Virus record (IMG/VR): IMGVR_UViG_3300013014_000035
Coordinates: 1 to 57,866 of that record
Strand: one strand, 5' to 3'
Length of the DNA stretch: 57,866 nucleotides
DNA from: a virus
Taxonomy: Duplodnaviria > Caudoviricetes
A program made the translations under genes and the position numbers. Within the stretch, counting starts at the first letter, position 1. Each line of letters begins with the position of its first letter. Of the stretch, positions 3,163 to 16,227 are shown piece after piece. Below the pieces are notes generated by a model. It did no database searches and was not told the origin of the DNA. It was given only the letters and a program-made list of their open reading frames with translations.

Positions 3163-3603
3163 ATGACCGATTTTGAAAACGAAGTCCTGGCTATGATGTC
3201 CTTCAGAGAGCAGGATCTCCTGCTTCGTGTCTTGGCCTTGTCTTCTTGTCGTGAGGGTGCTATCGTCAGTCTGGTGGCTGGACGACTGCAGGACATGATG
3301 AATAGCGGTCTAATGGATCGCCTCTATCCGGAACTGGTTGATGCAGTCGAAGCGGAAACGGTAGTAGTGAAATCAAAGCCTGTCGAACCTGTGGTTACAC
3401 CTGAAGTGGTTACAACTACCACTTCTATGGAGGTTGGCGATATTGTTATTGCCAATTGGAATATTGCTAACACGCCTGGTCTGAACGGCGATGTTGTAAA
3501 GATCCTCGTATTTGAAGGTGATCAAGTTTGTGTCAAGCATCCGGGTGGTACAATTTCAGTTTTCAATGTAAAGAATCTTCGACCCATTCCAAAGGATTTT
3601 TGA
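3163..3603 (+). CDS. hypothetical protein, possible C-terminal SH3/KOW-like barrel
   Basis: AGGAG RBS; MEVGDIV...VKIL..EGDQVCVK pattern. Confidence 0.65.
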   Translation: MTDFENEVLAMMSFREQDLLLRVLALSSCREGAIVSLVAGRLQDMMNSGLMDRLYPELVDAVEAETVVVKSKPVEPVVTPEVVTTTTSMEVGDIVIANWNIANTPGLNGDVVKILVFEGDQVCVKHPGGTISVFNVKNLRPIPKDF

Positions 3604-3605
3604 TT

Positions 3606-3911
3606 ATGGTAAACCGTGAACGTATGATGTCCCCAAGGCGTATGGAAACTCTTGATCTAGATTATTCGACTCTGAGTAGCGCATTGGAGACAATCCAATG
3701 TCTCATTGACAAGTATGGTCCGGATGCTATGATCTGTGAATATGATGCAGATTATAGTGACAACAAATATTTGGCTGTATCTGTCAAGGTGCCCGAGACG
3801 GATCAGGAAATGGCCAAGCGTATTAGGGAAGAAGAGCGGTGGGAAGCCGACATGACTGCTCGTGATCGTGTAGAGTTTGAACGGCTCAAGGCCAAGTTTG
3901 GAGATAAGTGA
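3606..3911 (+). CDS. hypothetical protein
   Basis: start ATG 3606; C-terminal PETDQEMAKR...FERLKAKFG motif common in phages. Confidence 0.7.
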   Translation: MVNRERMMSPRRMETLDLDYSTLSSALETIQCLIDKYGPDAMICEYDADYSDNKYLAVSVKVPETDQEMAKRIREEERWEADMTARDRVEFERLKAKFGDK

Positions 3912-4135
3912 TTATGACTGCGCTCGAATACGAAGAGGTAATGGCGAATTTTGACTTGTTGATTGTCCATGTACAAAAGCTCCGGACTGATTATAATAAT
4001 GATTATAATAAGCTTCAGGAGAAGTTCCGAACAGCTTGTTGGCTATTACGTGATGCTGCAGATACATTGGCCTGTATGGATGGTGCAAACTATCCACTGA
4101 ATAGTATTATGCAATTCCTAGAGGAGAATAATTAG
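3908..4135 (+). CDS. hypothetical protein
   Basis: coupled ORF, GGAG RBS. Confidence 0.6.
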   Translation: MIMTALEYEEVMANFDLLIVHVQKLRTDYNNDYNKLQEKFRTACWLLRDAADTLACMDGANYPLNSIMQFLEENN

Positions 4136-12227: not shown

Positions 12228-13346
12228 ATGGCTCGGTTAACTAAACCCAAACCTAAAAAGAATGAACGTGTAGGTAAGACTGCACAATACATTGCTGATC
12301 TTAAGTTTATGGGTGAAGAACCAGTCGTCAAGGGTATTGTTGAACTTGACGACATGACCATAACCAAGATCTTTGGTTGGTACAATTATATGTGCACCAG
12401 ATCGGATGCCCGTCAGTATCTTAAGGACTTTTTTAAAATTCAAGGTGAAGATACTAATCTGGAAATGTTGGCAACAGTGCCGGACATTTGGATTAGTGTT
12501 ACAGCTGCTTGGTATGCACGTATTCTGAATCGTGGTGGTATCCTTGAAGTACCCCATGTAAAAAAGTTTAGGTTTAGGTTGACGGAGATGTTTTCAAAGT
12601 CGACTTTGAATAAAGTATTGGAAGTTCCCGATGAACCAGTCACTGAGGAAGTGACTGTTAAGGTTCGTAAACCAAGCGCCAAGATATCCGACTTTATCGG
12701 TGAGTTTGAGGAAGCCATAGATAAGTCAGGCTGGACATTATCCATGTATGAATGGCTGCAAAACAAACAGATTCCCTCGAATCAGGCAAAGATTGTTGAG
12801 GAATTTTATGCACCAATTGCCGAAGAGGCTAATCTGTCTCTCACCAGCACTAAGGTCAAAGAAGGGTATAACCATTATACCAGTGCTGAGTTGAAGAAGA
12901 GAGCGGCATTTTACTCTGGTATCGTGGCGGATTGTCAGCGCCATGCCTCGAACAAGAAGCAAATCGTCCGTAAGAAGAAAACAATTTCAGCTGATAAGAA
13001 ACTCAAGGATTTAAAGTTCCAAGCCGAAAGCAAAGACTTTAAGGTGGTATCCATCAATCCTGAAAAGATCCTAGGCTCTAGCGAGCTGGTGACGTTTAAT
13101 ACAAAATATAAGACACTCACACAGTTCATTGCTATGACCGAATCGGGTCTAGATGTAAAGGGCACCACCATCCTAAACTATGATGAAGACAAGAGCAAGA
13201 CCTATAGGATTACCAAAAATACTGAGATAAATATTGAGATGGTTTTCCGCAGCGGTCGGAAGGCATTTCTTAAGAATTTGGAAAAACTAAAAACTGCAAC
13301 ACTACAACATCGTATCAACGAAAACACAGTTCTTTTGAAGGCATAA
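12228..13346 (+). CDS. conserved T4-like phage hypothetical protein
   Basis: 372-aa ORF; SINPEKILGS..L..FNTKYK.L and GLDVKGTTI...RINENTVLLK motifs typical of environmental T4-like phages. Confidence 0.8.
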   Translation: MARLTKPKPKKNERVGKTAQYIADLKFMGEEPVVKGIVELDDMTITKIFGWYNYMCTRSDARQYLKDFFKIQGEDTNLEMLATVPDIWISVTAAWYARILNRGGILEVPHVKKFRFRLTEMFSKSTLNKVLEVPDEPVTEEVTVKVRKPSAKISDFIGEFEEAIDKSGWTLSMYEWLQNKQIPSNQAKIVEEFYAPIAEEANLSLTSTKVKEGYNHYTSAELKKRAAFYSGIVADCQRHASNKKQIVRKKKTISADKKLKDLKFQAESKDFKVVSINPEKILGSSELVTFNTKYKTLTQFIAMTESGLDVKGTTILNYDEDKSKTYRITKNTEINIEMVFRSGRKAFLKNLEKLKTATLQHRINENTVLLKA

Positions 13347-13350
13347 CATT

Positions 13351-13638
13351 ATGGCAAAACAAGATAAAACCACCAGCTTTGACTATGTAATTATTGATGG
13401 CGAACGAGTGAAGGTACCCGCATATCGCTATAATAAGAAAGGTGATAAGGATGGTCTTGAACCTTCACATGGCTACTACAAGAAAGTTAAGACGCCATGG
13501 GGCGCTATCGAACGTTGTTTCATTGTCTCAGTTCCTAGTCTTGCCGGTGGTAAAGATTCTTATGCCAGTGTCTTTAAGCCAGAAAGCAATCCTGGTGTTC
13601 GTTGGTCCGTGTTTCAGTTGCAAGAATCTTATAATTAA
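13351..13638 (+). CDS. hypothetical protein
   Basis: 95-aa ORF in operon. Confidence 0.65.
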   Translation: MAKQDKTTSFDYVIIDGERVKVPAYRYNKKGDKDGLEPSHGYYKKVKTPWGAIERCFIVSVPSLAGGKDSYASVFKPESNPGVRWSVFQLQESYN

Positions 13639-13641
13639 TAG

Positions 13642-13670
13642 TTGACATACACTTAAAAGTATGATATAAT
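13642..13670 (+). promoter_or_regulatory. sigma70-type promoter of tRNA cluster
   Basis: TTGACA-N17-TATAAT ending 10 nt before first tRNA. Confidence 0.85.
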
Positions 13671-13679
13671 AATTATATT

Positions 13680-13756
13680 GGTCCCATAGCTCAGCTGGAT
13701 AGAGCAACAGACTTCTAATCTGTGGGTCGCACGTTCAAGTCGTGCTGGGATCACCA
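13680..13756 (+). tRNA. tRNA-Arg(TCT)
   Basis: GGTCCCA/TGGGATC acceptor, anticodon arm ACAGA-CTTCTAA-TCTGT, GTTCAA T-loop, encoded CCA. Confidence 0.95.
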
Positions 13757-13762
13757 AGTTTT

Positions 13763-13840
13763 GGACCTGTAGCTCAGTTGGTTAGTAGCGGACCGCTCAT
13801 AACGGTTTGGTCGTAGGTTCGAGTCCTACCGGGTCCACCA
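13763..13840 (+). tRNA. tRNA with CAT anticodon, probably tRNA-Ile2 (lysidine) rather than Met
   Basis: GGACCTG/CGGGTCC acceptor with C4-G69 and C5-G68 (TilS determinants in E. coli), GACCG-CTCATAA-CGGTT, encoded CCA. Confidence 0.85.
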
Positions 13841-13842
13841 GT

Positions 13843-13969
13843 TTGTGGTAAGTAGAGTCTACTGTATGGCTACGCAAGTCTCGAGAACAGTAGAGCGGAC
13901 TGATCATTCGTAAAAGGAGGATGGGCAACCTAGGTGCAATAATCTAGGCAGATACCCCACCTGCCACAA
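13843..13969 (+). ncRNA. candidate structured tRNA-like ncRNA
   Basis: closing stem TTGTGGTAAGT/ACCTGCCACAA; TCTACTGT/ACAGTAGA; GCGGA-CTGATCA-TTCGT; CCTAGG-TGCAATAA-TCTAGG; no ORF. Confidence 0.5.
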
Positions 13970-14001
13970 TTGATTTTTTTATAATCGTTCAAAGGTGATA
14001 T

Positions 14002-14412
14002 ATGTTCGAAAAGATTGACTATGATGAATTGGTCTCAAAATATGATTATCAAACCAAGCTAGATATTGCTGCATGGGTCATCAGCAAAATTGATGAGCAT
14101 GGAACAAATCCAGGATCATTCCGATATTTGATTTATGATCGTCTTGGTTTTGATCTTGATGCATATGTACCTTTGTATTCAGCAGGTGGTATGAATATCT
14201 CAAATGAACTAGATTACTCATATCGTGAAAATCTTGCCAATGTTGTCAAGGAACAAAACATTGATAACAAGGAACTTAAGTCCGCTCTTTTGATTTGTGA
14301 TGAGCCTGGGTGTTATAATTACGCAAGCTGCGGCTTTCCTACATCTGATGGCGGTTATCGCAGAACTTGCCATGATCATAGTGATTTTAAAATAAATAAA
14401 TCGGAGACATAA
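14002..14412 (+). CDS. hypothetical protein with C-terminal Cys/His cluster
   Basis: PGSFRYLIYDRLGF; CDEPGC....SCG.......RRTCHDH. Confidence 0.75.
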   Translation: MFEKIDYDELVSKYDYQTKLDIAAWVISKIDEHGTNPGSFRYLIYDRLGFDLDAYVPLYSAGGMNISNELDYSYRENLANVVKEQNIDNKELKSALLICDEPGCYNYASCGFPTSDGGYRRTCHDHSDFKINKSET

Positions 14413-15441: not shown

Positions 15442-15652
15442 GAATGTAAATTTTTCGGCTGATATTCGTCAATTATGTGAAGAGAAGGGAATGGAATTTA
15501 TTGATGCTGTAATTCATTGGTGTGATGTGAATAGTCTTGAACCTGAATATGCAGCATCACTAATTAAGAAAGATCCTACAATTCTTTCTAATATCACATG
15601 TGAGGCCGAAAATTTAAATATCCTTAAGAAGACTGCGCGATTACCTGTATGA
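15434..15652 (+). CDS. gp33: late promoter transcription co-activator
   Basis: MEFIDAVIHWC....EPE..A.LI.......EAENLN.LKKTARLP; synteny with gp59-gp32. Confidence 0.85.
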   Translation: MIKNVNFSADIRQLCEEKGMEFIDAVIHWCDVNSLEPEYAASLIKKDPTILSNITCEAENLNILKKTARLPV

Positions 15653-16227
15653 CACCATTCGAGACATATAAGGACTATTTGTCTCTTAAAAACCATTTTA
15701 ACTCCCCTGGATATGATTACTTTAAATATAAAGGTAAGGTATCCGGAAGTATAGGCTCTTTTAATAAGCGCAAAGATAAATTCTTTTTTGAAAAAATGGC
15801 TAAGCATAAAGATGCACATAATCTTATGCTCGCTAATTTTATACAAAATCCTAAATGTTGGATTAGAGAATTAGCATATGATGAATCAGCCGAACAAATA
15901 TATCTTAATTGGTTGAAACGAAGTCAATCTTTAACTTATATGGTTTCCGGTGATCTTAAGAAACTAGAAGAAAAGTTTAATGAGAACTTTATAGTTAGAG
16001 ATAATCAACACCCAGTACTGCTTAAGCTTTTCTGTAGTGATTCTATATCAGTAGAAACTCTATGTATACTGGTGGATATTTCCAGATGTTTTAAACACTG
16101 GGATAAGGAACTTAATGATGATGTTGTATGGACCGATATTAAACTTCTTATCAAGAAATACACACCATTCATTAAGTATGATAGAGAAAAAATCCAAAAA
16201 CTATTGATTGACTTTTTCTCTGTTTAG
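15649..16227 (+). CDS. gp59: helicase loader
   Basis: YLSLKNHF....YDYFKYKGK.....SF.KRKDKFFFEK; KKYTPF. Confidence 0.9.
   Translation: MTPFETYKDYLSLKNHFNSPGYDYFKYKGKVSGSIGSFNKRKDKFFFEKMAKHKDAHNLMLANFIQNPKCWIRELAYDESAEQIYLNWLKRSQSLTYMVSGDLKKLEEKFNENFIVRDNQHPVLLKLFCSDSISVETLCILVDISRCFKHWDKELNDDVVWTDIKLLIKKYTPFIKYDREKIQKLLIDFFSV

Follow-up and report, generated by a model that had tools for sequence, protein, structure and literature searches.

The small stable RNAs of the bacteriophage T4 tRNA cluster have been known for decades (PMC3014915, PMC9697503), and the species 1 and 2 RNAs, encoded by rnaC and rnaD, are described there as still being of unknown function (PMC3014915, PMC9697503, PMC12685909). 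PMC12286853 portrays GOLLD and ROOL as phage and prophage RNAs, likewise of unknown function, which often lie near tRNA islands and form homo-oligomers. Here we analyse a stretch of 57,866 nucleotides (nt; hereafter the window), a piece of an uncultivated virus record with an estimated completeness of 37%, in which an element at positions 13841-13976 of the plus strand shares several of these traits. In T4, the start of rnaD lies 1 nt past tRNA-Arg, with rnaC coming after another 6 nt, and the window element likewise directly follows a tRNA; the sizes of the two T4 RNAs (139 nt for rnaC, 119 nt for rnaD) are also similar to those in the family described below. We consider it likely that the element belongs to an extensive phage small-RNA family residing in the tRNA arrays of large aquatic phages, where it occupies what could be called an extra "tRNA slot". 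This family appears to be undescribed and is a strong candidate for a new Rfam family.

The original prediction, made from the letters of the window, had seen here four helices in cloverleaf order and had offered two readings, a tRNA mimic such as a decoy for anticodon nucleases, or another novel structured RNA. The four helices are indeed present and recur in homologues with compensatory changes. The second reading is borne out by a conserved, covarying fold that lies on the tRNA strand and has no Rfam match at E<=10, whereas the first did not survive comparison across the family, as we discuss further below.

Results

A conserved core with two optional arms

The homologues have in common a core composed of the closing helix P1, the purine-rich strand UAAGGAAAG, the sequence-conserved helix P4 (AGGAGN/N'CACCU), which contains an A.A mismatch and an AU bulge, a GAUA internal loop and a variable hairpin P5. 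The P2 and P3 arms are optional inserts. The window element contains every core feature within 13843-13969, with N:N' being G:C at 13920:13957, and it belongs to the extended subtype, since P2 and P3 with self-complementary tips follow its purine-rich strand. Its parts are as follows.

13841..13976, plus strand: small RNA, extended form, matched by covariance model R1 at 156.2 bits, the window sequence being in the building set of R1
13843..13849, plus strand: 5' strand of P1, UUGUGGU, pairing over 7 base pairs (bp) with GCCACAA at 13963-13969, one U.G pair included
13850..13857, plus strand: purine-rich junction strand AAGUAGAG, taken from the alignments; the family consensus is UAAGGAAAG if the last P1 base is counted
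13858..13894, plus strand: P2 arm, with an 8-bp stem (TCTACTGT at 13858-13865 with ACAGTAGA at 13887-13894) and a 21-nt distal loop
13879-13886, plus strand: palindrome UCUCGAGA of the P2 loop
13895..13911, plus strand: P3 arm, with a 5-bp stem (GCGGA at 13895-13899 with TTCGT at 13907-13911) and the 7-nt loop CUGAUCA at 13900-13906
13901-13906, plus strand: palindrome UGAUCA of the P3 loop
13912-13914, plus strand: A-rich linker
13915-13924, plus strand: 5' strand of P4, AGGAGG-AU-GG, pairing with 13955-13962; A.A mismatch at 13918/13959, AU bulge at 13921-13922
13925..13954, plus strand: internal loop GCAA / CAGAUA and the variable hairpin P5
13929-13935 and 13942-13948, plus strand: P5 strands CCTAGGT and ATCTAGG, with the loop at 13936-13941
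13955..13969, plus strand: 3' strand of P4, CC-C-C-A-CCU, then the 3' strand of P1, GCCACAA, with zero nt between
13970..13980, plus strand: 3' tail UUGAUUUUUUU; UUGAUUU is common to the nearest variants, the longer T-run is specific to the window context
13974-13980, plus strand: T-run

P1, P4 and P5 together make up one long interrupted helix. Several details of the proposed cloverleaf stand as drawn, namely the 8-bp stem (P2), the 5-bp stem with the 7-nt loop CTGATCA (P3) and the T-run, while others had to be redrawn. The closing stem exists but has 7 bp instead of 11, with 13955-13962 pairing with 13915-13924 in P4; the T-arm-like hairpin is real but is the tip of the longer P4+P5 arm and has no T-loop. 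The covariation of pair 13920:13957 (see below) fixes the register of P4 and thereby corrects both the 11-bp closing stem and the minimum free energy (MFE) structure of the single sequence. The stretch had also been taken to be free of open reading frames (ORFs); this holds for the plus strand, which has none of at least 25 amino acids (aa) within 13841-13972, but not for the minus strand, where a 43-aa ORF with a TTG start overlaps the region (13797-13928). A short peptide starting at AUG 13921 was dropped as a candidate on the grounds that the reading frames differ among variants, as was a pseudoknot that would join GAUCA of the P3 loop to UGAUU of the 3' tail, which is lost in L037 with its tail AAUCCAAUC.

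The family and its extent

A first pattern, drawn from the part that is invariant between contigs of public sequencing runs, identified four viral loci; a 3' pattern added a third type, located inside a cluster of nine tRNAs (L032), and a metagenome scan with a P3-based pattern, in which the 3' half was left unspecified, contributed further types, including one marine contig (L037). At that point, eight distinct sequences of six types were at hand with three blocks in common, among which the P2 and P5 hairpins had been swapped for unrelated yet still pairing sequences, and GAUACCNCACCUGCCAC was identical in all eight although the pattern that fetched them did not contain the 3' half. A subsequent scan of viral contigs with a fourth independent pattern, made up of core words (AAAGGAGNAUGGG, a gap of 15-45 nt, GAUACCNCACCUG) found the element in at least 119 contigs, and extraction among the matches listed gave 130 instances with 90 distinct sequences. 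With three cultured phages included, the set comprises 131 instances in 103 distinct contexts, 63 of them minimal, 38 extended and 2 truncated. In the minimal form (~75-100 nt) P2 and P3 are absent, leaving P1, the strand UAAGGAAAG(N)A, P4, P5 and the return strands; in extended members, about a third of the family, both arms are inserted at one fixed junction site. The length ranges from ~75 to 155 nt overall.

The cultured carriers, Ralstonia phage RSP15, Cobetia phage Carin-5 and Vibrio phage 1.121.O, were identified by BLAST with a minimal member together with the covariance model. The RSP15 copy sits within a tRNA cluster, and in none of the three GenBank records is a feature annotated at the site of the element. 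All four complete phage genomes that carry it (160-353 kb) have a single copy. Other searches came back empty: the queries based on RSP15 and on the L100 type returned no further cultured phage, blastn of the 145-nt window element against cultured phages gave no hit at E<=1, neither blastn nor nhmmer recovered the element in the first 27 loci, and a 26-mer scan from the P5 hairpin found nothing because P5 is the variable part. Among bacterial-genome contigs the extended-form pattern produced two matches, both of which lie in coding sequence of high GC content and are not recognised by R1, and the viral pattern matches L042 and L043 were chance matches within coding sequence; all four were discarded. 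Literature searches, six sequence words included, retrieved no description of this RNA; it may be among the 8,495 candidate RNAs that PMC10690425 catalogues from IMG/VR.

Covariation and conservation

The search for homologues that the original prediction had recommended thus yielded a whole family, and all of its helices covary. RNAalifold on a plain MAFFT alignment recovered five helices. With the structure slightly extended, 96.4% of the cells were paired in the eight distinct sequences and 12 of the 33 pairs had changed on both sides; none of 500 shuffles was as high on any measure, and slid partners were paired in fewer than 50% of cells. Among 32 extended members aligned to R1 the figures were 94.4% and 24 of 33, and although this alignment is fitted to the model and hence biased towards the structure, slid controls did not rise above 36-48%. 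The 59 minimal members (MAFFT; P1+P4, 16 pairs) were paired in 90.6% of cells, with 9/16 pairs changed on both sides and a covariation score of 0.335 as opposed to 0.106 for shuffles (0/500 as high). Helix by helix, both-side changes affected 7/9 pairs of P1 in the minimal members and 4/7 in the extended ones, and in the latter also 8/8 pairs of P2, 5/5 of P3 and 6/6 of P5, with other lineages having unrelated P5 hairpins altogether. In P4, the pair 13920:13957 occurs as G:C, A:U and C:G, and the remaining pairs are constant, which is partly fixed by the fetching patterns.

Frequent G.U pairs, which would be A.C mismatches on the opposite strand, fix the RNA strand together with the constant orientation of the element. 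The A.A mismatch in P4 is never repaired across the family, sequence conservation is strong in the unpaired strands and the internal loops, and the purine-rich strand is nearly invariant though it lies outside the core-word fetching pattern. We also observed a recurrent version of P5 with the words GUGACAC ... GAAACG in many minimal members (for example L100 1707-1794, L081, L145, L163, L167), which suggests a possible second optional module with a structure or contact of its own.

Comparison with known RNA families

The element matches none of the families to which it was compared. The Rfam 15 cmscan that had been recommended as a check found nothing but the two tRNAs in the whole window at the gathering score, and at E<=10 the window region, four extended loci plus L037 and three minimal loci gave tRNAs and noise only, with no match to GOLLD, ROOL or ribozyme families. 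Models of the Rfam tRNA clan (RF00005, CL00001) had nothing in 13841-13980 at E<=10, and the tmRNA_permuted model reached 12.6 bits (E=2; gathering score 47), mostly over the tRNA. ARAGORN called 13680-13756 and 13763-13840 only, and no tmRNA. The element also lacks an NCCA end, as the tail after P1 is UUGAUUU and ACCA is absent. The statement in the original prediction that this is not a tRNA agrees with both ARAGORN and Rfam.

Self-complementary loop tips

The apical loops of P3 are self-complementary over at least 4 nt in 25 of the 26 distinct hairpins (shuffle mean 12.0, maximum 20 in 2000) and over at least 6 nt in 17 of them (mean 2.7, maximum 9 in 2000), and the words involved are specific to lineages (UGAUCA, UAAUUA, GGCC, GUGCAC, GGGCCC). 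The distal loops of P2 behave alike, with a palindrome of at least 6 nt in 24/27 distinct loops (shuffle mean 8.0, maximum 16). The P5 loops, which serve as an internal control, show no excess (2/27, with 2.8 expected). Three loops that break the DNA palindrome remain self-complementary as RNA via G.U pairs, namely CUCGGG (L038), UUGGCCGA (L158) and UAAUUG (L118). What had been seen as the "anticodon" GAU is the centre of the window palindrome UGAUCA.

Genomic context across the family

A tRNA gene on the same strand lies within 1.5 kb in 86 of the 103 distinct contexts; on the opposite strand there is one in none. The tRNA end falls no more than 25 nt before the GG of P1 in 54 contexts, commonly at 8-10 nt, a spacing at which P1 starts a few nt past the tRNA. 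On the other side, a tRNA starts within 30 nt after P4 in 40/103 contexts, commonly at 15 nt, and 26/103 have tRNAs close on both sides.

Some of the neighbouring tRNAs deserve mention in their own right. In L028 (1661-1754), L029-L031, L036, L038 and L073 the element is directly followed by a tRNA of 94-95 nt with the anticodon UAU and a long variable arm, which scores 52.6-58.5 bits with the Rfam tRNA model. Class II bodies, that is those with a long variable arm, are usual for Leu, Ser and Tyr tRNAs, and an AUA-reading one is unusual; it could represent an odd Ile tRNA or a recoding of AUA. Just upstream of the element in L032 (~3830-3922) lies a tRNA-like sequence ending in GGGAGCUCCA, with a plausible 7-bp acceptor stem, for which ARAGORN makes no call.

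The locus in the window

The immediate neighbourhood of the element, together with one gene further downstream, comprises the following features.

13642..13670, plus strand: sigma-70-type promoter-like site upstream of the tRNA/RNA unit, TTGACA-17-TATAAT with TG before the -10, 12/12 hexamer matches
13680..13756, plus strand: tRNA-Arg(UCU), called by ARAGORN; Rfam tRNA 66.6 bits
13763..13840, plus strand: tRNA with a CAU anticodon (Met or Ile2) and encoded CCA, called by ARAGORN; Rfam tRNA 59.5 bits
14002..14412, plus strand: 136-aa ORF, family unassigned, preceded by a ribosome-binding site; in close relatives it comes directly after the tRNA
15649-16227: helicase loader, by PHROG match

The promoter-like site is the sole one in a scan of 13300-14300 and, being a consensus match only, is a putative promoter. 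The element begins 1 nt past the CCA of tRNA-CAU (13840), and is followed by the seven T's at 13974-13980, the ribosome-binding site and the 136-aa ORF from 14002. The word AGUUUU is frequent as a spacer after the CCA of array tRNAs (13757-13762 and 13841-13846 in the window, and many other loci), and the start of the element itself, A/GUUU(U)GUGG, resembles it; this spacer may be a shared processing signal. The few genes of the window that can be identified suggest a distant T4-like phage. Its best protein matches within the phage collection, at 24-33% identity, come from phages of rhizobia, Caulobacter and Pseudomonas that measure ~155-290 kb.

An accessory cassette in a mosaic locus

Relatives were fetched from viral contigs using two flanking proteins. 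The element is absent from all nine distinct close-relative contigs (L001-L007, L018, L025), whose neighbouring genes are 87-96% identical; in each of these, the ribosome-binding site and the start codon are the same as in the window and come within ~8-16 nt of the end of tRNA-CAU. It is thus an accessory cassette. Elsewhere in the relatives' records it was found in 0/5, all of these records being fragments that are 26-52% complete. L002 has a tRNA-CAU identical to that of the window, yet its tRNA-Arg(UCU) (2826-2901) is quite unlike 13680-13756 despite flanking genes that are 92-96% identical. This indicates that a single tRNA gene may have been replaced as a cassette between the two, and makes the locus a mosaic of cassettes.

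Public runs, labelled as lake water, freshwater or plain metagenome, contain both states. Since these data are contigs, depth and uncovered parts are uninformative and bridging contigs alone were counted; runs with small word shares (X7-X18, X20-X24) were left aside. Record 6 of run X2 is identical to the window over 13662-14200, and record 20 of run X3 spans 13787-14200 with three differences within the element, whereas in record 21 of run X6 position 13776 is joined to 13981 and the element is absent. The element together with the same downstream gene is present in the X2 and X3 contigs and in L033, and a 12-kb contig of run X6 (record 25) carries tRNA-CAU and a diverged element between other flanks.

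Genes that could mobilize such cassettes are found nearby. In L031, a gene for a Seg-like GIY-YIG homing endonuclease lies exactly between tRNA-CAU and the element, and the tRNA locus of L025 (3330-4430) contains an endonuclease VII-type gene (PF02945, E 7.5e-16) in addition to a Seg-like GIY-YIG gene. In L025, the tRNA interrupted by each endonuclease gene is left beside that gene as a truncated copy, and a tRNA that is intact or different comes next; this arrangement looks like one in which homing endonucleases swap tRNA cassettes. In L014, a more distant relative (neighbour protein 46% identical), ARAGORN reported at 3402-3757 a candidate permuted tmRNA with the tag peptide ANDNFAPSYALAA, overlapping a tRNA-Arg call.

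Discussion

The model that we propose for this family begins with co-transcription. The RNA and the tRNAs would form a single transcript initiated at the putative strong promoter (13642-13670), and the RNA would subsequently be excised by the enzymes that mature tRNAs, with RNase P acting at the next tRNA and RNase E plus exonucleases at the end of the upstream tRNA; in the window, the 3' end would instead lie near the T-run. We regard this route as, on balance, probable, because the junctions with the tRNA ends are flush. Once excised, the extended form would pair with its own copies through kissing loops at the tips of P2 and P3, a step that the loop palindromes make a real possibility, albeit one that falls short of being probable. 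The core, for its part, would act in trans while bound to a widely conserved cellular partner. This stands about an even chance of being right: the conserved unpaired strands, P4 and its unrepaired A.A mismatch suggest a partner shared by hosts that differ widely. The ribosome platform could be that partner, given the likeness of P4 to a Shine-Dalgarno/anti-Shine-Dalgarno helix, although we consider this unlikely. Combined into one scheme, a tRNA-like excised RNA would, in its extended forms with two different kissing loops, build defined homo-oligomers (dimers, rings or chains) that mimic ROOL and GOLLD in miniature, and its core would dock on, for example, the 30S platform to bias translation or tRNA use; as a whole, this scheme is something of a long shot.

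Several observations weigh against the model or its parts. The folding energy, one of the checks recommended by the original prediction, is no better than that of shuffled sequences (MFE -37.4 kcal/mol, z -1.20, equalled by 23 of 200 shuffles), even though the single-sequence fold gives roughly the same structure as the helices first proposed. Taken alone, this would argue against a structured RNA, and it is the comparative data that decide instead. The invariance of AAAGGAG, AUGGG, GAUACC and CACCUG in the 115 new loci is a product of the fetching pattern; the cultured members found by BLAST differ at these words (AAACGGAG, CACCGG), the first P4 pair for instance changing from A:U to C:G, and all three phages retain the architecture despite the changed "fixed" letters. 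In 17 of the 103 contexts there is no tRNA nearby, and in some of these, such as the L057 group, the element follows a TATAAT-like box; processing of the tRNA type thus cannot be the sole route of production. A terminator scan called no terminator at the T-run. The evidence for transcription comes from record 3 of metatranscriptome run X19, a 257-nt contig with a depth of 3.2 that spans the tRNA and reaches position 13925 within the element; it demonstrates presence in an RNA library only, and carry-over of DNA is possible. The perfect palindromes at the tips could also have arisen by templated mutation at the DNA level or mark the site of a DNA-binding protein. Finally, a Ribosomal_S21 gene was found neither in the window record (0/1) nor in the complete carrier genomes (0/4), so there is no tie between the RNA and the ribosome platform in these records and that idea remains a lead.

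How do other explanations compare? A purely cis-acting module for processing or punctuation, one on which RNase P, RNase E or RNase III would land or which in the window would act as a terminator, with no role after excision, would account for the flush tRNA ends with their typical gaps of 8-10 and 15 nt, for the long interrupted helix of P1, P4 and P5, and for the seven T's ahead of the ribosome-binding site of the next gene. Punctuation should recur, however, and there is one copy per genome even though arrays reach 18 tRNAs within 1.5 kb; moreover, close relatives carry the same tRNA without the element and mature it, and neither the contexts that lack a nearby tRNA nor the strong conservation of unpaired strands and internal loops would be expected of such a module, nor was its terminator variant backed by the scan of the T-run. 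We therefore hold it to be quite unlikely. A new class of self-cleaving or otherwise catalytic RNA that frees the neighbouring tRNAs is very unlikely: the conserved nucleotides do sit at junctions and internal loops with the helices free to vary, as in ribozymes and aptamers, and the ends of the element coincide with those of tRNAs, but these ends are already explained by host enzymes, a conserved candidate cleavage site was not identified, and no Rfam ribozyme family matched at E<=10 in the loci scanned.

The tRNA mimic, in which the anticodon-arm look-alike (CU-GAU-CA) would serve as a decoy or sponge for a host anticodon nuclease or another tRNA-binding enzyme, drew on the location in tRNA arrays and on a cloverleaf-like topology that includes the 7-bp closing stem, an arm of 5 bp whose 7-nt loop has U as its second nucleotide, a gap of ~3-4 nt ahead of the last arm, and no gap between that arm and the closing stem. 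Yet P2 and P3 are missing from 63 of the 103 contexts, and where P3 exists its loops vary between lineages from 7 to 14 nt, sharing self-complementarity and no anticodon-loop pattern. The putative position 37 is C; T-loop, D-loop and CCA are absent, and neither ARAGORN nor the Rfam tRNA clan makes a call. Because P3 is optional and variable, the anticodon-decoy idea fails, and we deem the mimic highly improbable. The least probable proposition of all is that the element is a feature of the DNA (a target of homing endonucleases, a recombination site or a palindromic operator) or the decayed remains of a tRNA after cassette swaps. The locus is a hot spot of such swaps, with different tRNA-Arg cassettes between 96%-identical flanks and with endonuclease genes in L025 and L031, its tips are perfect DNA palindromes, and it has the 9-mer AGAGCGGAC in common with the tRNA-CAU of relatives. 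Against this stand the compensatory changes that preserve helices of wholly different sequence, the numerous G.U pairs, which are possible on one of the strands only, the constant location on the tRNA strand, the three palindrome-breaking variants that are self-complementary as RNA only, and a core that is conserved over at least 119 contigs and is single-copy in the complete genomes.

If the excised RNA that we favour does bind a universal host component through its core, it would represent a widespread and overlooked route by which large phages reach host translation or RNA processing. The lineage-specific palindromic tips predict self-association of the RNA. Its accessory behaviour means that near-isogenic natural phages with and without the element exist, and at least three cultured phages carry it; in the GenBank records of these carriers, the family fills an intergenic stretch that had been left blank. 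With its many diverse members, clear core, comparable optional modules and single-copy occurrence, it also provides a better handle on the decades-old question of the T4 small RNAs.

With regard to T4, the analogy to its stable RNAs drawn by the original prediction holds for position but does not extend to similarity. With filters off, R1 did not hit rnaC or rnaD in the T4 region at E<=10. Nor did nhmmer find anything at the element, whether the family profile was run on T4-like loci or the rnaD profile on loci of the family. T4 rnaC has a canonical T-arm sequence, and the tRNA-array family has none. T4 rnaD (L046 5054-5172) and its homologues in L047-L050 consist of invariant 5' and 3' blocks around a variable middle; the 5' block reads GGUAAGU plus CGGACUGA (CGGACUGAU in 4/5), with the word order matching that of the window element. 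In an alignment, the five rnaD homologues have only GGTAAGT and CGGACTGA in common with the window element, and CGGACTGAT is kept in four of the five, JS98 having A at the last base. Homology to rnaD is unproven and was rejected, as two common words are backed by neither the covariance model nor nhmmer. The T4 cluster does resemble L031 and L025 in another respect, holding the GIY-YIG gene segB where the tRNA loci of the latter hold Seg-like GIY-YIG genes.

GOLLD and ROOL are ~600-800 nt or longer, as opposed to the 75-155 nt of the tRNA-array family, and they form homo-oligomers, whereas in our family oligomerisation is suggested by the palindromic loops. The family is like tRNA in its array position and, in the extended form, in its four-way junction, cloverleaf order, 7-bp closing stem and arm with 5 bp and a 7-nt loop; it differs in having no D-loop, T-loop or CCA and, in most members, in missing two of the four arms. 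The dimerisation initiation site of retroviruses is a kissing-loop hairpin whose loop contains six self-complementary nt that differ between lineages. The tips proposed here to kiss would be its counterpart, with several members having the 9-nt loop AG-UAAUUA-A and one having GUGCAC, a likeness that we take as a functional analogy between otherwise unrelated molecules.

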